A DNA stretch of 64,000 nt from an uncultured Candidatus Saccharibacteria bacterium (GTDB taxonomy: Bacteria > Patescibacteriota > Minisyncoccia > Phycocordibacterales > Phycocordibacteraceae): the NCBI GenBank assembly GCA_964371445.1, contig CAYJLK010000002.1:43718-107717 (forward strand), read 5' to 3'. This document shows positions 4,558 to 63,544 of this stretch, piece after piece. The notes under the pieces were generated by a model, which saw only the letters and a program-made list of their open reading frames with translations, searched no databases and was not told where the DNA came from. Each line of letters starts with the position of its first letter. The first letter of the stretch is position 1. The position numbers and the translations under genes were made by a program.

Positions 4558-4935
4558 TTACACGACTTCTGGCGCAAGCGACACGATATTGTGCCAGCCT
4601 CGCTCGGAGAGTTCGCGCGGCACCGGACCGAAGATGCGGTTCCCTTTCGGACCCATCTCCTTACCCTGCTTCTCGATGAGCACGACCGCATTCTCGTCAA
4701 AACGGATATACGAGCCGTCCTTGCGACCAAAGGGCTTCACTTGCCGCACAACGACCGCACGGAAGATGTCCTTCTTCTTCACGGCCTTTCTCGGCGCGGC
4801 GGTCTGGATGGACACGACGACCACGTCCCCGATGCCCGCATAACGGCGCTTGCTGCCGCCGAGCACTTTGAAGATTCTCGCGACTTGTCCGCCGGAGTTG
4901 TCCGCTACTGTAACGATGGATTGAGGTTGCAACAT
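4558..4935 (-). CDS. rplN: 50S ribosomal protein L14
   Basis: 125 aa, MLQPQSIVTVADNSGGQVARIFKVLGGSKRRYAGIGD... matches L14. Confidence 0.92.
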   Translation of the reverse strand: MLQPQSIVTVADNSGGQVARIFKVLGGSKRRYAGIGDVVVVSIQTAAPRKAVKKKDIFRAVVVRQVKPFGRKDGSYIRFDENAVVLIEKQGKEMGPKGNRIFGPVPRELSERGWHNIVSLAPEVV

Positions 4936-54256: not shown

Positions 54257-55777
54257 ATGAGTGTCTTGATTTCAGTCACTGGAGGGTTTGTGAGCGGGGT
54301 AGGACTCCGCTCGCTTTTTTATTTCGGGTGGGAGCCGGCGGCGTTTGTGATGATACTCGCGGCACTTCTTGGTGCCGCGGCATTTTATAAGCCGCGAGTC
54401 GTGTACACGATGGGTACAGTGTTTTGTTTATTCGTCGCGTTCGGGATGGTGCGCTCAACAGTCGCCGATACGCCGCCGCCCGAGGCGTTTGTGCGCGACC
54501 TGAAGCATCGCGTGTCGTATGAAGCAGTGGTGGTGGGGGACCCGGATGTGCGCGAGAAGAATCAAAGGATTGCGATTCAAGTGGGGGATGTGGGCATGCT
54601 TGCCGTGATGCCGCTCTCGGCTCGCGTAGCGGTCGGCGACCGCGTGCGCGTCTATGGCACGCTTTCCTTGCCGCAAGCGTTTGAGACCGAAAATGGTCGG
54701 ACATTTCGTTATGACAAATATCTCGAGGCGCGCGGTATCCGCTTTCTTATCCAATACGGGACGATATATACACAGGAGCCAGCACTGTGGTATTCGGTTC
54801 CGGCCGCCTTAGCACGCATCAAGCACTCATTTCTCGACGGGCTCAACCGCGCATTGCCGACACCGGACAGCGCGCTCGCGGGCGGCATCGTGATAGGAGG
54901 GAAGCAGGGGCTCGGCACCGAACTCCAAGAGGCATTCACGCGCTCGGGGCTCGTCCAGATCATCGTGCTCTCGGGCTACAACGTGATGATAGTCGCCGAA
55001 TGGGTGATGGCATTCTTCGCGCTCCTTGCGCTCCCGCGCCGTCTCCAATTCTTTGCTGGCGGGGCGGCACTCCTCCTCTTTGTTGGCATCGCCGGCATCT
55101 CCGCCACGGCGGTGCGTGCCGCCATCATGGCGGTCATCGCGCTCTACGCGCGAGCGACCGGGCGCTCCTATGCCGCGAGCCGTGCGCTCCTATTCGCCGT
55201 CCTCCTCATGCTCATATGGAATCCGCTCTATCTCGTCTTTGACCCCGGCTTCGGTCTCTCGGTCGCCGCGACCGCAGGCATCATCTGGCTCGCCCCGATT
55301 ATTGAACGCATGATGGACTTCGTAGGTCCATCATCAGATGAGGGACCTACGAAGTCCCGACATGGGTTCTGGACAAACACAATTGCGACCACGCTCGCCG
55401 CGCAAATCTCGGTACTTCCATTATTGCTCTACAACATCGGACTCTTCTCGCTCGTCGCACTGCCGGCGAATATCCTGGTGAACCCGCTCGTGCCGCTCGC
55501 GATGGCTCTCGCCGCTATTGCGGGAGTCGTCGGCATGACTATCGGACCTTTCATTCCATTTATCACCGCCGTCATCGGCGCCCCCGCCCACCTCCTCATG
55601 CGCTACTTCATCTTTATCGCAGAAAAAAGTTCCGCACTGCCGTATGCGGCATTCAATCTGCCCCTCTTCTCATTTTGGCTCGTCCTCGCCGCGTATGCGG
55701 CGCTCATTTATATAGTCGCGTCGAAGCGCTTCTCGACGACCGACCAGTTCACATTCGCGAAAAAGGCGTCGACATAA
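54257..55777 (+). CDS. comEC: DNA internalisation competence protein ComEC/Rec2 (no C-terminal metallo-beta-lactamase domain)
   Basis: DUF4131-like N-region plus a polytopic competence domain (QIIVLSGYNVMIVAEWV). 506 aa; ends after the TM bundle. Confidence 0.8.
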   Translation: MSVLISVTGGFVSGVGLRSLFYFGWEPAAFVMILAALLGAAAFYKPRVVYTMGTVFCLFVAFGMVRSTVADTPPPEAFVRDLKHRVSYEAVVVGDPDVREKNQRIAIQVGDVGMLAVMPLSARVAVGDRVRVYGTLSLPQAFETENGRTFRYDKYLEARGIRFLIQYGTIYTQEPALWYSVPAALARIKHSFLDGLNRALPTPDSALAGGIVIGGKQGLGTELQEAFTRSGLVQIIVLSGYNVMIVAEWVMAFFALLALPRRLQFFAGGAALLLFVGIAGISATAVRAAIMAVIALYARATGRSYAASRALLFAVLLMLIWNPLYLVFDPGFGLSVAATAGIIWLAPIIERMMDFVGPSSDEGPTKSRHGFWTNTIATTLAAQISVLPLLLYNIGLFSLVALPANILVNPLVPLAMALAAIAGVVGMTIGPFIPFITAVIGAPAHLLMRYFIFIAEKSSALPYAAFNLPLFSFWLVLAAYAALIYIVASKRFSTTDQFTFAKKAST

Positions 55778-56298
55778 TTCTTCTTCTCTGCCGGCACATA
55801 GTCCACCATATACGCGTGCTCCCAGAGGTCGAGCGCGAGCAGGATAGGGAGGCCGGCGAGTGATCCGAGTTCATGGTCGTTCACAAAGACCGTGTGTAAT
55901 GTCTTCCCGATAGGGTCGGCATAGACGACGACCCAGCCGATGCCGCGGCTCTGTGCGACTTCTCGCATGTGCGCCTCGAGTGTTTTCTCTCCGTACTTCT
56001 CGGTTATTGCCTTCGCGAGCGCCCCATCGCCCGTGAGGGAAGTCTGACTTCCTTCAAACTGTTCAAAGTAATATTCGTGGAGGCGCATCCCGTTGAATTC
56101 AAAGGCGAGCCGTCTACGCATCTCGGCTATCGCATATTTCCCACCCTCATCTTCTGTCTGTCCATACGCGGCGATGGTCGCCATGATGAGATTCACATGC
56201 TTCACGTACCCCTCATAGAGGGCGAGGTGCACTTTCACCTGCTTTTCTGAAATCCCCGAGAGAATAGGGAGGTCGAACTGTTTTGCGGTGTAGGTCAT
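55708..56298 (-). CDS. sodA: Fe/Mn superoxide dismutase
   Basis: Trimmed to MTYTAKQFDLP.... Motifs HLALYEGYV, FNGMRLHEYYF, DLWEHAY. Confidence 0.88.
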   Translation of the reverse strand: MTYTAKQFDLPILSGISEKQVKVHLALYEGYVKHVNLIMATIAAYGQTEDEGGKYAIAEMRRRLAFEFNGMRLHEYYFEQFEGSQTSLTGDGALAKAITEKYGEKTLEAHMREVAQSRGIGWVVVYADPIGKTLHTVFVNDHELGSLAGLPILLALDLWEHAYMVDYVPAEKKNYVDAFFANVNWSVVEKRFDATI

Positions 56299-56419
56299 AG
56301 ACCTAAAATGTACCATTCATTTACAAGAACTCCATGTAGACAGCGGATAGAAACTCGTGAAGTCTTTGAACACAAAGACGGGCCCTTCATGAGGGGTCCG
56401 TCTTCAGGAGCGCGCCGTT

Positions 56420-56683
56420 TCATTCCGCTACACTCCCAATTTCCGGGAAAGTGCCGGTAAGGAAGGCGGGGGTGCCGACCATTTCTGCTCTGATGAAAAG
56501 TACCAGGCCGTTTTCTTCATGCCTGCTCACGCCGCCAGCTTTGACGAGTTGTTCGGCGGCCTCCTCAATTTCCGCTTCCGATACCCCTTGGAGATACGTC
56601 TGGAGATCGCGCGGCCGTACGCCTTTCCCGATAGGAAGACACAACCGAACTTTTGCCTGCAGTTCCATTGAGCTTATGTTCAT
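56420..56683 (-). CDS. hypothetical small protein
   Basis: 87 aa; no recognisable family. Confidence 0.45.
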   Translation of the reverse strand: MNISSMELQAKVRLCLPIGKGVRPRDLQTYLQGVSEAEIEEAAEQLVKAGGVSRHEENGLVLFIRAEMVGTPAFLTGTFPEIGSVAE

Positions 56684-56763
56684 GACAGCTCCTTTGTCCG
56701 TGGGAACATTCCCATATATAAAATACCTCGGTACCGGGATGAGTCCACCGCCCGAGGTGGATA

Positions 56764-57006
56764 TTAAATCGCTTTTGCCTTCTTGAGGGCGGCGAAGGCG
56801 CCGTTCTTCTTGATGGTCTTAAGGCCTTTCATGGAGACGTCCACAATAATAGTCTTATTCAGCTCCGCCACATAGATGCGGCGCTTCTGGAGGTTCGCCT
56901 TGCGACGGACCTTGCCGGTCGGATTAAATTGCGTCGCACGGGTACGGTTCGAGTACCGCCCGCCGATCTGGGTGGTCTTGCCGGTGATGTCACATTTTCT
57001 TGCCAT
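56764..57006 (-). CDS. rpmB: 50S ribosomal protein L28
   Basis: MARKCDITGKTTQIGGRYSNRTRATQFNP... Confidence 0.88.
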   Translation of the reverse strand: MARKCDITGKTTQIGGRYSNRTRATQFNPTGKVRRKANLQKRRIYVAELNKTIIVDVSMKGLKTIKKNGAFAALKKAKAI

Positions 57007-57118
57007 AAAATATATTTAGTAGATACCTTGCCATAGGAGGCCTGCCCCGTAGCCAGCCGAGCGAAGCGAGGCTGTGGTACTGGGGCGCATGGTAGCATAG
57101 GTTCGTAAACGAGCAAAC

Positions 57119-57751
57119 ATGGTCACCCTCCTCACGTTCACTATCCTTATCCTTTCCATCATCGTCCACGAGGTGGCGCACGGCTACGCCGCCAACTCGC
57201 TCGGCGATCCGACCGCCCGCCTCGCCGGCCGTCTCACCCTGAATCCCATCCCGCACATCGACCTCATGGGCTCGATCGTCCTCCCCGCCCTGCTGGTCTT
57301 CACAGGGTCCCCGATCATGTTCGGATGGGCGAAGCCGGTACCCTATAATCCTTACAATCTAAAGAATCAGCGCTGGGGCGAATCGCTCGTCGCGGTCGCC
57401 GGAAGCGCGACGAATATCCTCCTTGCGATTATCTTCGGCCTCATCGTGCGATTCGGCGGCTCGCTCGGATTTGATGCGACGGCGCTTTCTCTGGCGGCGA
57501 CTATCGCCTTCATCAACCTCTTCCTCGGCCTCTTCAATCTCATCCCGTTCCCCCCGCTCGACGGCTTTACCGTACTTCGTTCGGTGCTCCCGTGGCACCT
57601 CTCCTCCGGCTTCGCCCGCCTCGAACAGCACGTCCGCGCCGCGGGAGTCATTTCGCTCCTACTCTTCCTCTTCATCTTCTCCTACCTGCTCGCGACTCCT
57701 TTTTTCAACCTCGTCCTCTGGCTTTTCGGGCTCCTCGCGGGGAAAGGGTAG
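57119..57751 (+). CDS. site-2 protease family (M50-like) membrane metalloprotease
   Basis: HEVAHGYAANSLGDPTARLAGRLTLNPIPHIDLMGSIVLP, the COG1994 signature. 210 aa, polytopic. Confidence 0.75.
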   Translation: MVTLLTFTILILSIIVHEVAHGYAANSLGDPTARLAGRLTLNPIPHIDLMGSIVLPALLVFTGSPIMFGWAKPVPYNPYNLKNQRWGESLVAVAGSATNILLAIIFGLIVRFGGSLGFDATALSLAATIAFINLFLGLFNLIPFPPLDGFTVLRSVLPWHLSSGFARLEQHVRAAGVISLLLFLFIFSYLLATPFFNLVLWLFGLLAGKG

Positions 57752-58089: not shown

Positions 58090-58524
58090 ATGGAATACCA
58101 GGTGCCGCAGTTCATTGAAGTCGAGGACAAGATCATCGGTCCTTTGACCTTGAAACAATTCATCTATATCGCCGGAGCAAGCGGACTCTGCATCGTTTTC
58201 TTCGTCTATTTACCCATCATCGTCGCCCTCCTCCTCGCGGCGCCGGTGGCAGGGCTCGCAGCGGCACTCTCGTTTTATAAGATGAACGGGAAACCGTTCA
58301 TCGAGGTGCTCGAGGCCGGATTCAGTTATTACACGCGGGGGAAACTCTTCCTCTGGAAACATCAGGACCAAAAGGTCCAGGAAGAGAGCGTCGCGGATAC
58401 GGCCGCCGCGGAGATTCCGTCGCCGCGCGCCACGCCGAAGCTCACGCGCGGGAAGCTCTCGGAGCTTGCGTGGTCGCTCGACGTACAGAAGGCGGGCGGC
58501 AATGCCGAGAACAAGAATCCCTGA
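58090..58524 (+). CDS. PrgI-family / VirB3-like small membrane protein of monoderm-type T4SS
   Basis: MEYQVPQFIEVEDKIIGPLTLKQFIYIAG followed by two TM helices. Immediately upstream of the VirB4 N-domain ORF. Confidence 0.6.
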   Translation: MEYQVPQFIEVEDKIIGPLTLKQFIYIAGASGLCIVFFVYLPIIVALLLAAPVAGLAAALSFYKMNGKPFIEVLEAGFSYYTRGKLFLWKHQDQKVQEESVADTAAAEIPSPRATPKLTRGKLSELAWSLDVQKAGGNAENKNP

Positions 58525-58525
58525 T

Positions 58526-59161
58526 ATGGCGGTACCCTCAGCAAGCGCAACCCAGCAGTTCGTTCCGGTGAAGGAGATCCGGAACGGCATCATTATCCTC
58601 AAAGACGGCGGCTACCGCGGCGTGCTTATCTGTTCCTCGATCAACTTCGGACTCAAGTCGGCCGATGAACAGCACGCGATCACGCTCGGCTTCCAGAATT
58701 TCCTCAATACGCTCGACTTCTCGATACAGATTGTTATCAATTCGCGCCGGATGGACCTGCGTCCCTACCTCGCGCTCCTGGGAGAAAAGTCCGCCGAACA
58801 AAAGACAGAGTTGATGCGGATCCAACTTCGCGAGTATATCGAATTCGTCCGCTCCTTCACCGACCAGGCGAATATCATGACGAAATCTTTTTACGTCGTC
58901 GTCTCATACACGCCGCATGTCAGCGCCGCGAGCGCGACCAGCTTCCTGCGGCGCGAGAATGCCGCGGTGAAGAGCGCCGCTGCCGAGACTTCTTTCGAAG
59001 AAGATCGGGCTCAGCTCGAACAAAGGCTCACACTCGTCGCCGCCGGTCTTGCAGGCACCGGCGTTCGCGCGGTCCCGCTCGGTACTGAAGAGGTCATCGA
59101 ACTGTTGTATCGTTCATTTAATCCGGGCGAACTTGAGAACCCTATCAGGCTCGATAATTAA
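58526..59161 (+). CDS. VirB4/TraE-family N-terminal domain as a separate ORF
   Basis: QQFVPVKEIRNGIIILKDGGYRGVLICSSINFGLKSADEQHAITLGFQNFLNTLDFSIQIVINSRR matches the N-terminus of Gram-positive-type VirB4. Ends 4 nt before the ATPase ORF, in a different frame. Confidence 0.7.
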   Translation: MAVPSASATQQFVPVKEIRNGIIILKDGGYRGVLICSSINFGLKSADEQHAITLGFQNFLNTLDFSIQIVINSRRMDLRPYLALLGEKSAEQKTELMRIQLREYIEFVRSFTDQANIMTKSFYVVVSYTPHVSAASATSFLRRENAAVKSAAAETSFEEDRAQLEQRLTLVAAGLAGTGVRAVPLGTEEVIELLYRSFNPGELENPIRLDN

Positions 59162-59165
59162 ACGT

Positions 59166-60992
59166 ATGGCACTCCTCGACTTTCTCAATCGTAAAAAAGA
59201 AGAAGAAGAAGAAGCGCCGGCGGTCATGCCGGTCTTGCCGAGAGACATCTACCGGCAGGGAGCGCTGAGCCTCGTTGACACTATCGCTCCGACGGCGCTG
59301 AAGATCAGCTCGCGCGAGCTCGAACTCGGAGAAAAATTCGTCCGCGCTTTTTACACTATCTCGTATCCTCGTTTCCTCTCCGACAGCTGGTTCTCGCCCA
59401 TCATCAATCTCGACAAAGTGCTTGATGTCTCTCTCTTCATCCACCCGGTAGAGACCGAACAGGCCCTGCGCGGCTTCCAGAAGAAGGTTGCCGAGGTCCA
59501 GAGCCAGATTAACGAGCGCGAAGCGAAGGGATTGGTGCGCGATCCGCTGCTTGATACGGCGTACCAAGATCTCGAGAGCCTGCGCGATAGCCTCCAGCAG
59601 GCGCAGGAAAAGCTCTTCGATGTCGGCCTCTACCTCGCGCTCTACGGCGACACGAAGGAGGAGATCGACCGGACCGAAGGCGATATCCGCGGTATCCTCG
59701 ACGCAAAGCTCGTCTATACGAAGCCGGCGTTGTTCCAACAGGAGCAGGGGTTCCGCTCATGCCTGCCCTTGGGTAGCGACGAGCTCCTCGTCAATTCGAA
59801 GTTGAATTCATCGCCGCTTTCTTCGATATTCCCGTTCGTTTCTTTCGACCTGACGAGCGACCGCGGCATCCTCTACGGCATCAACCGACACAATTCTTCG
59901 CTTATTCTCTTCGACCGCTTCTCGCTCGAGAACTACAATTCCGTCGTGTTTGCAAAGTCCGGTTCCGGCAAAAGCTACGCGACGAAGCTCGAGATCCTGC
60001 GCTCCCTGATGTTCGGCACCGACGTCATCGTCATCGATCCCGAACGCGAATACGAACAGCTCGCCGAAGCGACGGGCGGACGCTCATTCCACATCTCGCT
60101 CTCTTCCGAGCATCATATCAATCCGTTCGATCTCCCGCCGGTCAAGGAAGACGAGGATCCGAAGGATGTCCTGCGCTCCAACATCATCGCGCTTGTCGGA
60201 CTCTTCCGCATCATGCTCTCGGGACTCTCTCCCGAAGAAGACGCGATCATCGACCGCGCCATAAGTGAAACGTACGCGCTCAAAGACATCACCGGCGATT
60301 CCGACTTTACCGGCGCCGAACCGCCGCTGCTCTCCGATTTCGAACAGGTGCTCTCCGGCATGGAGGGAAGCGAATCGCTGGTCGAGCGCCTCTCGAAATA
60401 TACTCGCGGGTCGTGGTCGGGATTCCTTAATCAGCCAACCAACATCGACCTGAAACAGCAGTTCGCCGTCTTCTCGGTGCGCGATATGGAGGACGAGCTG
60501 AAACCAGTCGCGATGTATATCGTCACGCACTACATCTGGAATGCGGTACGGCACGAGATGAAGAAGCGGCTCCTTATCATCGACGAGGCGTGGTGGATGA
60601 TGAAGAGCGACGACACCGCCTCCTTCCTCTACTCGCTTGCGAAGCGCGGAAGAAAATATTATCTGGGCGTCTGTACCATCACGCAGGATGTCGAGGACTT
60701 CTTGAAGAGCCCGTACGGTCGGCCGATCCTTACCAACTCCTCTATCCAGTTATTGTTGAAACAGTCGCCGACGACCATCGACGTGCTCCAACAGACCTTC
60801 AATCTTACCGATGAGGAAAAATATCTTCTGCTCGAGGCTGGCGTCGGGGAAGGGCTCTTCTTTGCAGGATTGAAGCATGTCGCCATCAAGGTCGTCGCGA
60901 GCTATACCGAGGACCAGATTATTACCTCTGATCCTTCCCAGCTGATCGCCATTAAGCAAGAGAAGGATCGGTATGCCGCAGAAAAGAAATAG
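59166..60992 (+). CDS. VirB4/TraE-family conjugative ATPase (central and C-terminal domains)
   Basis: Walker A FAKSGSGKSY, Walker B LLIIDEAWWMM, FYTISYPRFLSDSWFSPIINL region. 609 aa. Confidence 0.85.
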   Translation: MALLDFLNRKKEEEEEAPAVMPVLPRDIYRQGALSLVDTIAPTALKISSRELELGEKFVRAFYTISYPRFLSDSWFSPIINLDKVLDVSLFIHPVETEQALRGFQKKVAEVQSQINEREAKGLVRDPLLDTAYQDLESLRDSLQQAQEKLFDVGLYLALYGDTKEEIDRTEGDIRGILDAKLVYTKPALFQQEQGFRSCLPLGSDELLVNSKLNSSPLSSIFPFVSFDLTSDRGILYGINRHNSSLILFDRFSLENYNSVVFAKSGSGKSYATKLEILRSLMFGTDVIVIDPEREYEQLAEATGGRSFHISLSSEHHINPFDLPPVKEDEDPKDVLRSNIIALVGLFRIMLSGLSPEEDAIIDRAISETYALKDITGDSDFTGAEPPLLSDFEQVLSGMEGSESLVERLSKYTRGSWSGFLNQPTNIDLKQQFAVFSVRDMEDELKPVAMYIVTHYIWNAVRHEMKKRLLIIDEAWWMMKSDDTASFLYSLAKRGRKYYLGVCTITQDVEDFLKSPYGRPILTNSSIQLLLKQSPTTIDVLQQTFNLTDEEKYLLLEAGVGEGLFFAGLKHVAIKVVASYTEDQIITSDPSQLIAIKQEKDRYAAEKK

Positions 60993-61635
60993 CGCCGAGC
61001 CACCGAAGGTGATGACCTGGGGAAAGGCAGCACCGATTCTTGCTGTGTGTGTCATCTTCGACGCGCTGCGCCTCATGTTCGAAATGTTCTGGTTCTTCGG
61101 ACCGGCGATGGCCGCCCTCTACTGCACCGTTAAGGTGAGCGGGGTGGTCGGAACGACCTTGGGAGGATTTGCCTGCGGTGTCGGCGCTACGGTGGCGGGA
61201 ACCCTCGGAGCTCCCGCCATAGAGGTTTTCGGCGTCGTGATGGCGATAGCTGTCGGACTCTTCGGATGGCTCGTCATCGGACTCTGGCTCATGGTAACGA
61301 ACGCGCGCATTTTCAAAGAGAATGCCGCCTGGTTTGCCGGTAGTCTCCTCATAAGCGAGATACCTATTGTCGGTTCGATACCCGCACTTACCATCATCGT
61401 CTGGAAAATGTACCGCACGCAAATCACGCTAGAAAAAGCCGAGATGCAGCGCTATGAACAGGAGCGAGCCGCTGCCGAACGGCAGGAGCGCGAACAACGA
61501 ATCGCCCTCGTACTCCACAACCAATCACTGCAACAAGCGCAGATCGAGCAGGAAGAGGCGGCGGACGATGCGCTCTCTGCCGAAGCCGCAAATGATGATG
61601 AATATATCCCCCAAAAGATGAGAGAGGCGGCGTGA
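60973..61635 (+). CDS. polytopic membrane protein with coiled-coil C-terminal tail (VirB6-like candidate)
   Basis: 4-5 TM helices then QRYEQERAAAERQEREQRIALVLHNQSLQQAQIEQEE. A GAGAAGGA SD precedes the ATG at 60973. Overlaps the VirB4 end. Confidence 0.55.
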   Translation: MPQKRNSAEPPKVMTWGKAAPILAVCVIFDALRLMFEMFWFFGPAMAALYCTVKVSGVVGTTLGGFACGVGATVAGTLGAPAIEVFGVVMAIAVGLFGWLVIGLWLMVTNARIFKENAAWFAGSLLISEIPIVGSIPALTIIVWKMYRTQITLEKAEMQRYEQERAAAERQEREQRIALVLHNQSLQQAQIEQEEAADDALSAEAANDDEYIPQKMREAA

Positions 61636-62663
61636 CCTCTTGCAAGAGGCGCTATACTAGACGCATGCGTTCTGGTCTCCTCACCATTCTCACTGCCGCC
61701 CTCATGCTCCCCGGTATAGCTGCCGCCCAGGTGTTTGCCGACCTGGGAATAAGCGACACCGCGTCCTTCAATCTCTCCGCCATTCCTCAGTACCCGGTGC
61801 CCTACGGCAAGGTGTCCCTCTCCTTCCTTTCAGGTTCTATCGAGCTAACGAGCGCGACCTTGACCGTTTCCGCAAACGGAAAAGACATATACCGAGGCTC
61901 GGTACAGCCGGTCTCTGTCACGCTCGGAAAGGCGGGGAGCGTAACAAATGTGACGGCGATTATATCTGCCGGCGGCGAGAAATACACTCAGACACTCCGC
62001 ATCCAACCCCAAGACGTCGCGCTCATCGCCGAACCGATCTCCTTCGCGCCCCCGCTCTATCCCGGGAAACCGCTCGTACCACTCGACGGGACTGTGCGCG
62101 TCGTCGCTATGGCGAATCTGAAAAATGTCAGCGGAAAGTCGCTCGACCCCGCGACACTCTCCTACGCATGGGTCGTCGACAACATGCAGATCGCAAACTC
62201 CTCGGGCATCGGCAAGACGGCAATCATGGTCGCCTCGCCGCTTCAGTACCGCAGTCGCGATGTTGCGGTCTCGGTCATGAGCGCCGACGGGAGCCACGTC
62301 GGGGGCGCATCGCTCTCGCTCTCGTCCCTCGAGCCTTCGATACGCCTCTATGAAAATGACCCCTTGCTCGGCATTCGTTTCAACCGCGCCCTTTCGGGCG
62401 CATACTCCATCATGAACGCCGAGTCTTCGCTCTATGCCGCTCCATTTTCGCTCCCGACCCAGCGTGGAGCGCCGCTTATCCAGTGGTTCTTAAACGGAGA
62501 ACCAGCACAGACTGGCGGCTCCATAACCCTGCGACCGACGGGAAGCGGGCAGGGGAGCGCCTCGCTCTCGCTCACTGCCTCCTCAGGGGAGTATGCAAAG
62601 GCGACTGCGAACCTCTCCCTCAAGTTCGGTGAAAAACCCGAATTTAATTTCTTCGGATTATGA
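61632..62663 (+). CDS. secreted protein, hypothetical (T4SS-cluster associated)
   Basis: Signal peptide MRSGLLTILTAALMLPGIAAAQ from Met12 (61665), then a Ser/Thr/Ala-rich beta-type domain. The stop TGA overlaps the next ATG (ATGA). Confidence 0.6.
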   Translation: MTSCKRRYTRRMRSGLLTILTAALMLPGIAAAQVFADLGISDTASFNLSAIPQYPVPYGKVSLSFLSGSIELTSATLTVSANGKDIYRGSVQPVSVTLGKAGSVTNVTAIISAGGEKYTQTLRIQPQDVALIAEPISFAPPLYPGKPLVPLDGTVRVVAMANLKNVSGKSLDPATLSYAWVVDNMQIANSSGIGKTAIMVASPLQYRSRDVAVSVMSADGSHVGGASLSLSSLEPSIRLYENDPLLGIRFNRALSGAYSIMNAESSLYAAPFSLPTQRGAPLIQWFLNGEPAQTGGSITLRPTGSGQGSASLSLTASSGEYAKATANLSLKFGEKPEFNFFGL

Positions 62664-62741
62664 ACCCCGTTAGAAATCACGAACAAAATATGAAAGATAA
62701 AAATGTGGCAGGAAGTCGCATGGGTTCTATTTCTAACGGGG
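62660..62741. repeat. second copy of the inverted-repeat element ATGAACCCCGTTAGAAAT-N51-ATTTCTAACGGG-GTG
   Basis: Arms at 62665-62677 and 62729-62740. Same arm sequence, spacing and flanking ATGAA / RTG as the ppa copy. Spacer sequences are unrelated. Confidence 0.6.
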
Positions 62742-63544
62742 TGAAGAAAACGACGCTCATTCTCTCTGTTCTCTCATTTTTCGCGCTCGCCTCGACCGCC
62801 TTTGCACAAGGATTCGTCCCGCTCGCACCGATACCCGGTCTCACCGAGGGCGCGACAGCAGACACGGCTGGTCTCGCGAACTTCTTCAACAACCTCTACA
62901 AATATCTCATCGGTCTCGCTGCTGCGCTCGCTGTCATTGAAATCATCTGGGGCGGACTTGAAATATCGACACAGGATTCGGTGAGCAAGAATAAAGACGG
63001 GAAGGATCGTATCTATCAGGCGATCTTCGGCCTTGTCCTCGTCCTCTCGCCAGTGCTTGTCTTCTCCATCATCAATCCGAGTATTCTGAATCTCTCATTG
63101 AATCTCCAGAAGCTGGATACAGCATCCACAGCACCAAGTCCAGTACCAAGTGGAACGGGAACAGGGGACACAACCACAGCGACTGCAGCTGGATGCTCTG
63201 TGTCACTTAATCAAGGCGTTGTTGGTTGCCCGACTCAAGCAGCAGCTGATGCCTGGGTTAGTTCATGTTCGAACGGCACTGGGCGCGTGTATCTATCAAA
63301 TGAAGCTTCGTTACCTTATGCGGCAACCTGTAACGTCTTGCAACCATTTCGGGGAAACCAAAATTATACTGACAAGACAACGATCCCAGCAGGGCTGTGG
63401 TGTTTCAAGACCGAAGATGCCAACAAGCCCAACACTATTGTTTACACCTGCGGTGCAAGTAAAGACGCCTGCGACACCCTCGCTATGCGTCCTCCTCTAG
63501 GAGGACGTGTCTTCGCCGATTGTGCAAGCCCTCCTCCTAATTAA
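62660..63544 (+). CDS. pilin-like (VirB2/TrbC-like architecture) secreted protein with Cys-rich C-terminal domain
   Basis: Signal peptide, two hydrophobic helices (LANFFNNLYKYLIGLAAALAVIEIIWGG; IFGLVLVLSPVLVFSII), Thr-rich linker, 8 Cys in the last about 110 aa. Start ambiguous among ATG 62660 (coupled), ATG 62720 (AGGAAG SD) and GTG 62741. Confidence 0.55.
   Translation: MNPVRNHEQNMKDKNVAGSRMGSISNGVKKTTLILSVLSFFALASTAFAQGFVPLAPIPGLTEGATADTAGLANFFNNLYKYLIGLAAALAVIEIIWGGLEISTQDSVSKNKDGKDRIYQAIFGLVLVLSPVLVFSIINPSILNLSLNLQKLDTASTAPSPVPSGTGTGDTTTATAAGCSVSLNQGVVGCPTQAAADAWVSSCSNGTGRVYLSNEASLPYAATCNVLQPFRGNQNYTDKTTIPAGLWCFKTEDANKPNTIVYTCGASKDACDTLAMRPPLGGRVFADCASPPPN

Follow-up and report, generated by a model that had tools for sequence, protein, structure and literature searches.

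A TrsD-like gene and a short virB4 side by side in a type IV secretion operon of an uncultured Candidatus Saccharibacteria bacterium

In this study, we asked whether a virB4 gene that lies in two pieces is broken, misread, or truly divided between two genes. The case is a stretch of 64,000 nucleotides from an uncultured Candidatus Saccharibacteria bacterium (assembly GCA_964371445.1, contig CAYJLK010000002.1, positions 43,718 to 107,717; the whole stretch is called the window below), where two open reading frames (ORFs) of a type IV secretion system (T4SS) operon each resemble a part of the ATPase VirB4. ORF A, on the + strand, runs from ATG 58526 to TAA 59159-59161 and encodes 211 amino acids; ORF B, also on the + strand, runs from ATG 59166 to 60992 and encodes 608 amino acids. 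Their starts lie 640 nt apart, the frame of ORF B is +1 relative to that of ORF A, and the intercistronic spacer is the tetranucleotide ACGT (59162..59165, + strand). An earlier sequence-only reading had given the same coordinates and the change of frame, all of which can be read directly in the sequence; its total of about 840 amino acids comes down to 819 on counting. Our findings support a model, which we hold to be very probably correct, where the pair is a natural and ancient two-gene encoding of VirB4 in a chromosomal, Paceibacterota/Kaiserbacteria-like Patescibacteria T4SS operon, with ORF A and ORF B completing one N-terminal domain between them.

The N-terminal domains of VirB4 make dimer contacts, are embedded in the membrane and contact VirB3 and VirB8 (2025 review, PMC12857230). 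In Patescibacteria, a protein with remote homology to the VirB4 N-terminus, TrsD, is the commonest T4SS component and is usually encoded beside virB4 (PMC12102498, Microb Genom 2025). The same survey counted 2,272 TrsD homologues across 2,221 assemblies, found 1,664 of these homologues next to virB4, and lists TrsD as essential in Ca. S. epibionticum ML1 (PMC12102498). The homology of TrsD to VirB4 is credited there to Guglielmini et al. 2014 (PMC4027160); the main text of that article does not mention TrsD, and the claim probably goes back to a figure or supplement.

Two proteins and one N-terminal domain

ORF B is a VirB4 by its match to the NCBIfam model NF045971 (conju_CD1110), with 382.6 bits (cutoff 325; E 3.7e-114) over model positions 184-733. 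Its RecA-like ATPase domain is preserved: P-loop_TraG (PF19044) matches residues 254-557 (E 1.2e-26), the crystal structure of the C-terminal ATPase domain of T. pseudethanolicus VirB4 (4AG5) aligns with residues 233-588 (E 7e-44), residues 446-741 of TrwK align with residues 258-562, and the Walker A (AKSGSGKS) and Walker B (LLIIDEAW) motifs, read from the translation, are intact. The N-terminal domain, on the other hand, is incomplete, the alignment beginning only at position 184 of the 752-position CD1110 model and at position 259 of 800 in a TraC-F-type model. The part absent from ORF B is supplied by ORF A, which matches positions 1-166 of the same CD1110 model. By these profile coordinates, ORF A (58526..59161) is the detached first half of the VirB4 N-terminal domain (its first ~180 profile positions), and ORF B (59166..60992) holds the second half (residues 1 to ~232) followed by the ATPase domain (residues ~233-588).

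The predicted fold of ORF A points the same way. An AlphaFold2 model was built from an alignment of 49 Patescibacteria and Bacillota homologues, and its 14 best Foldseek matches in the PDB are all chains of TrwK, the VirB4 of R388 (E 5.6e-05 to 2.7e-03), the next match standing at E 0.23. The model superposes on TrwK and has the VirB4 N-domain fold. A sequence profile of the ORF A family found no VirB4 among PDB sequences, so that in this database the link was made through fold comparison only. Pfam family PF26593.2 is recorded, as a precomputed match, on all close homologues of ORF A and most of those from Bacillota; a local Pfam scan of ORF A itself gave no match to it at E<=10.

Where, then, does the break lie? 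The sequence-only reading had placed the split exactly at the boundary between N-domain and ATPase, a position that the profile, Pfam and 4AG5 alignments do not bear out. Because the ATPase domain of 4AG5 aligns only from residue 233 of ORF B, with the P-loop domain beginning at residue 254, the cut falls in the middle of the N-terminal domain, upstream of that boundary by ~230 residues. TraC_F_IV, the Pfam model of the N-domain (375 positions), is accordingly shared out between the two proteins, ORF A covering it to ~174 and ORF B covering 298-374.

A natural single-chain counterpart of the pair exists. Among the best 150 representatives of 50%-identity clusters matching ORF A, nearly all are 200-440 amino acids long, and only one is long: a 797-amino-acid "ATP-binding protein" (P0353; also MBI3088895.1 and MBI2506916.1), found on three contigs of Ca. 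Colwellbacteria metagenome-assembled genomes (MAGs). It is colinear with ORF A (40% identity, residues 5-213) and with ORF B (55% identity, residues 209-796). Relative to the pair it is without ~29 residues, namely the tail of ORF A together with the N-terminal motif MALLDFLNRKK and the acidic linker of ORF B. Since only these ~29 linker residues are absent from the fused homologue, no conserved VirB4 segment is missing from ORF A and ORF B taken together, which answers the question, raised in the earlier reading, of residues lost at the junction. The 797-amino-acid form suggests a secondary re-fusion within Patescibacteria.

The gene starts are well anchored by homologues. As those of ORF A are 211 amino acids long and align from residue 1, ATG 58526 is its true start; an upstream TTG at 58466 was ruled out on the same alignments. 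For ORF B, a TTG at 59049 was likewise discarded, homologues aligning from ATG 59166. The first 48 residues of ORF B (59166-59310) consist of MALLDFLNRKK, a variable acidic linker and a conserved segment, PVLPKDIYKQG.LDLVDTIAPTAL; the linker is encoded by a GAA repeat, and reads EEEEE in the window versus EEE in the closest strain (locus L001).

A junction that varies around two conserved genes

The sequence-only reading had left two options side by side, a natural two-gene split on the one hand and a frameshift, assembly error or pseudogene on the other, and had proposed to ask of sister genomes whether they hold one ORF or two. They hold two. Scanning a single genome from each species gave 80 related loci, which come from MAGs of Paceibacterota, Kaiserbacteria and other Patescibacteria. 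Both parts are present in 78 of them, as separate ORFs in 78 of 78 cases and fused in none. The junction itself is highly plastic. ORF A ends in TAA at 44 loci, in TGA at 24 and in TAG at 10. The spacer measures 1 nt (21 loci), 2 nt (18), 3-8 nt (19), 14-113 nt (13) or 552-978 nt (six), and at a single locus the genes overlap by 14 nt. The three possible relative frames occur 30, 26 and 22 times, and loci with both genes in the same frame still carry an in-frame stop. The coding parts, by comparison, are stable: ORF B aligns from residue 1 at its ATG in every locus, with an invariant start Met, and retains MALLDFLNRKK as residues 1-11 in all loci examined. Its identity to the window is 88-94% in 70 of the 78, the lower values belonging to genes cut short by the end of a contig. 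ORF A is also widespread as a protein of its own, with 6404 homologues at 90% clustering in a search of 5.8 billion proteins, the best 120 of which are, without exception, 211-224 amino acids long. The split had been regarded as rare if natural; this number, and the TrsD copies already counted in Patescibacteria (PMC12102498), speak against such rarity.

Seen in the window alone, one virB4 of 820 amino acids cut in two by a sequencing or assembly frameshift would be a reasonable suspicion, given that the ORFs are in different frames merely 4 nt apart and that most T4SS classes normally have VirB4 as a single fused protein, with NCBIfam full-length models of 752-894 positions. Yet the same two ORFs recur in 78 independent assemblies, with all three frames, all three stops, varied spacers and even inserted genes, and the 6404 homologues of ORF A stand alone; to an error of this kind we give next to no credence. 

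Patescibacteria genomes are reduced, and gene decay could be expected in them, such as a recent nonsense or frameshift mutation inactivating virB4 in this lineage. The substitution pattern argues otherwise. At the DNA level, ORF A of L001, the closest relative, has 97.2% identity to that of the window, and all 18 differences are at third codon positions, 18 being synonymous and 0 non-synonymous; against more distant loci, the ratio of non-synonymous to synonymous rates (dN/dS) of ORF A is 0.03-0.08. Neither a dN/dS near 1 nor scattered stops were seen in either ORF among the relatives. Together with the high identity of ORF B in most genomes, its intact Walker motifs and its conserved start codon and N-terminal motif, this purifying selection reduces pseudogenisation to a negligible chance.

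The closeness of the genes, and the single protein in the Colwellbacteria relative, might also be taken to favour programmed frameshifting or stop-codon read-through, by which a fused full-length VirB4 would still be made. The junction, however, conserves no slippery sequence, frame relation or stop, with frames 0, 1 and 2 about equally frequent and spacers variable, and in six genomes 0.55-0.98 kb of other genes lies between the parts. We therefore regard this mechanism as highly improbable. Overall, two ORFs in every locus holding both parts, variable stops, spacers and frames, and a low dN/dS exclude sequencing frameshift, assembly error, recent pseudogenisation and programmed frameshifting, and of the two options of the sequence-only reading it is the natural two-gene split that is retained.

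Several features of the junction were observed along the way. In the comparison with L001, where the spacer is 2 nt rather than 4 nt, 9 of the 18 synonymous differences fall within the last 45 nt of ORF A (window 59113-59155, L001 2444-2486); because half of the differences cluster there and are accompanied by the 2-nt spacer indel, the junction may be either a hot spot of local change or the border of a recombination tract. The GTDB genome with L001 holds a second copy (L028), 89% identical, on a 387-kb contig, and the presence of both in one bin suggests mixed strains. The long spacers of the six genomes are a cassette of 0.55-0.98 kb between the trsD-like gene and virB4 (L020, 3478-4362; L026, 4631-5349; L050, 613-1164; L053, 4637-5441; L068, 1899-2876; L074, 4628-5506). 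It contains a gene for a four-helix bundle of the 23S rRNA-intervening-sequence or bAvd-like type (PF05635, E 3.9e-36), with variable cargo ahead of it (DUF5680, a SET-domain protein or an ORF of no known family); in L050 all that is left of the four-helix-bundle gene is a C-terminal remnant, joined to the cargo ORF. The cassette resembles a small mobile element with this intergenic region as its target. Ten other loci (L022, L031, L035, L040, L043, L046, L047, L049, L073 and L078) share a conserved AT-rich spacer of 30-50 nt, with a motif like tttaaatatttaaatat, always after TGA and, in most of them, at about 4620-4670. Such a spacer, not present in the window, might act as a promoter inside the operon or as a regulatory site.

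The same break in Bacillota plasmids

ORF A is homologous to the N-terminal part of VirB4, and lies downstream of a VirB3-like gene and directly upstream of a virB4 without that part. The same order is found in the 78 related loci, in S. aureus pGO1, in Geobacillus and in C. botulinum pCLJ; with tblastn, ORF A has matches to small stand-alone proteins encoded by 83 plasmids, mostly of Bacillota. In the window, PrgI precedes a small protein of 211 amino acids (CD1110 1-166) and a large one of 608 that starts at 184. In Geobacillus pGspE55-1, PrgI is likewise upstream, the small protein has 318 amino acids (CD1110 2-174) and the large one, a DUF87 protein of 636, starts at 183. The corresponding values in pCLJ, again with PrgI upstream, are 257 amino acids for a small "TraC family" protein (CD1110 15-175) and 620 for the large one, which starts at 186. 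Two further small proteins have no CD1110 match but match the TrsD family NF041427: a "TrsD" of 345 amino acids on a Halobacillus plasmid, followed by a DUF87 protein of 622 that starts at 162, and TrsD of pGO1 (227 amino acids), with trsC upstream and TrsE, of 672 amino acids, starting at 183. Thus, in every system examined the large protein starts at nearly one profile position.

These systems resemble the window to different degrees. The Patescibacteria T4SS of the published survey is the same in all that matters: the organism group is the same, the same genes stand together (PrgI/VirB3, TrsD, VirB4 and a VirB2-like pilin), and the TrsD homologue is directly upstream of a chromosomal virB4 (PMC12102498). 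We see no substantive difference, and the window is an instance of the surveyed layout. The pGO1/pSK41 type, a subclass of MPF-FATA, shares the order trsC (VirB3-like), trsD, trsE (DUF87), with the break of TrsE at 183 versus 184 in ORF B. However, the pGO1 genes sit on a conjugative plasmid that also encodes a relaxase and a coupling protein, those of the window in a chromosomal operon, and the sequence similarity between the pGO1 TrsD family and ORF A is marginal. The pGspE55-1, pCLJ and Halobacillus clusters have the order PrgI, TrsD-like, DUF87 VirB4 and the same break, and are reached by direct tblastn match (Geobacillus, E 3e-15); their small proteins differ from ORF A in being longer (257-345 amino acids), with N-terminal extensions, at 22-29% identity, and one of them has a weak PrgI-like match. 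Single-chain VirB4s, among them the CD1110 family of CTn2, TrwK of R388 and the Ca. Colwellbacteria protein, are colinear with ORF A and ORF B over their full length, but form one polypeptide. The SCO6880 family of Actinomycetota (NF042935, 477 positions) is matched successively by PrgI, ORF A and the first 200 residues of ORF B at 12-80, 240-290 and 363-476, all far below the 60-bit cutoff. Its profile coordinates suggest a VirB3 and a whole VirB4 N-domain made as one protein, cut at the boundary between N-domain and ATPase, which is the layout that the sequence-only reading had in mind; from these successive sub-cutoff matches, this arrangement may be another way to cut the same VirB3-VirB4 module. 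TraD of a pELF plasmid is a coupling protein, irrelevant to ORF A.

The comparison bears on a further explanation, in which the TrsD-like protein, instead of being the piece missing from ORF B, is a paralogue of the VirB4 N-terminus with an accessory role of its own, for instance as a regulator or chaperone. Such a role is highly improbable, as ORF B, TrsE of pGO1 and the VirB4s of Geobacillus, Halobacillus and pCLJ lack precisely those profile positions that are covered by the small protein, and the fused relative joins both parts colinearly.

The pair as a divided VirB4 is not free of difficulties. The TrsD/TraD family model NF041427 gives ORF A 17.9 bits (E 0.0021) under a cutoff of 200, a weak link to the prototype TrsD, and hhalign of the ORF A family against the single pGO1 TrsD sequence is not significant; for these two reasons we call ORF A TrsD-like and do not assign it to the NF041427 subfamily. 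It is TrsD-like in position and role, and is caught by the TrsD profile of the published survey (PMC12102498). The AlphaFold2 model of ORF A is of medium confidence (pLDDT 67.5, pTM 0.60, the predicted per-residue and overall fold scores), and that of the 797-amino-acid protein, made without an alignment, has a pLDDT of 33.8 and is unusable for judging how the halves pack. Ahead of ORF B we see nothing resembling a Shine-Dalgarno motif, so that its mode of initiation is inferred, as is the association of ORF A with ORF B. All of these weigh against the model of a divided VirB4, which we nonetheless prefer.

We also considered a broader proposal: that one ancient fission at about VirB4 profile positions 175-184 is common to the Patescibacteria T4SSs, the pGO1 type and other Bacillota plasmid systems, was reversed by re-fusion in Ca. 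Colwellbacteria, and is functional, not neutral. Taken as a whole this is tentative, and we lean against it. If true, the VirB3-binding half of the N-domain would be free to be synthesised, dosed or swapped independently of the ATPase; MALLDFLNRKK of ORF B, absent from the fused form, would be a docking element; and TrsD, now of "function unknown", would be a VirB4 subunit.

The operon and a probable role of TrsD

The two genes belong to a tightly packed + strand operon, with spacers and overlaps of 1-20 nt all along, in the order prgI (VirB3), trsD-like, virB4, membrane protein, secreted protein, VirB2-like pilin. The first of these (58090..58524, + strand) encodes a small membrane protein of 144 amino acids of the PrgI/TcpE type, equivalent to VirB3 (Pfam PrgI PF12666, E 3.5e-09, 37.5 bits, cutoff 27; TcpE, E 3.3e-4), and ORF A starts 1 nt past its stop. 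Downstream, a gene on the + strand (60973..61635) overlaps the end of virB4 by 20 nt; its product, of 220 amino acids, is hydrophobic and probably polytopic, with hydrophobic segments read from the translation and an acidic coiled tail. This protein has no Pfam or NCBIfam match. VirB6 homologues accompany Patescibacteria VirB4 (PMC12102498), and this published presence, the position of the gene and the hydrophobic segments make its product a candidate VirB6-like channel subunit. It is followed on the + strand by a protein of 343 amino acids with an N-terminal signal-like segment (61632..62663; weak sub-cutoff BiPBP_C match, E 8.4e-4), whose gene overlaps each neighbour by 4 nt, and by a VirB2/TrbC-like T4SS pilin of 294 amino acids (62660..63544, + strand; Pfam T4SS_pilin PF18895, E 2.3e-08, 34.4 bits, cutoff 26.6; TrbC, E 1.2e-05). 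VirB4 (382.6 bits), the TrsD-like gene, PrgI (37.5 bits) and T4SS_pilin (34.4 bits) thus co-occur in the window, as in the Patescibacteria T4SS set of the published survey (PMC12102498). On the upstream side stand two ORFs that, judged only by their translations, resemble superoxide dismutase (55708-56316, - strand) and L28 (56764-57006, - strand), along with an M50-type peptidase (57119-57751; Pfam E 2.2e-15). Because these housekeeping genes (55708-57751) flank the operon, its setting is chromosomal, and not a plasmid or an obvious island.

How might a VirB4 in two parts work? Given that the spacers are mostly 1-6 nt, and that no + strand promoter-like or terminator-like site was matched at the junction of ORF A and ORF B, the trsD-like gene and virB4 are probably co-transcribed and translationally coupled. 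The two polypeptides would then associate non-covalently and so restore the N-terminal domain of VirB4 in full. If TrwK of R388 is a guide, the restored domain may anchor the ATPase hexamer to VirB3, here PrgI, and to VirB8-type partners at the membrane, while ORF B would supply the ATP hydrolysis for assembly and substrate transfer.

The TrsD-VirB4 pair is real, functional and already known, being the standard layout of Patescibacteria T4SSs and typical also of pGO1-type Gram-positive plasmids. The gene pair has been published, as have its frequency and the homology with the N-terminus of VirB4. The text of the survey contains none of the words "split", "fission", "shorter" or "truncated", and uses "fusion" only for VirB3-VirB4 (PMC12102498); it appears not to note that the accompanying VirB4 is without exactly the TrsD part, or that a fused form exists. 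What our analysis adds is that the halves are complementary, that they are cut at a fixed position in the middle of the N-domain common to Bacillota plasmids, and that a re-fused form occurs in Colwellbacteria. For annotation, it follows that no frameshift or pseudogene of virB4 should be recorded for such a pair, and that the 211-amino-acid "hypothetical protein" can be named a TrsD-like VirB4 N-terminal module. TrsD is described as of unknown function, though it is reported to be the most abundant T4SS component of Patescibacteria and to be essential in one species in cultivation; the complementarity of the two proteins gives it a concrete and testable role.

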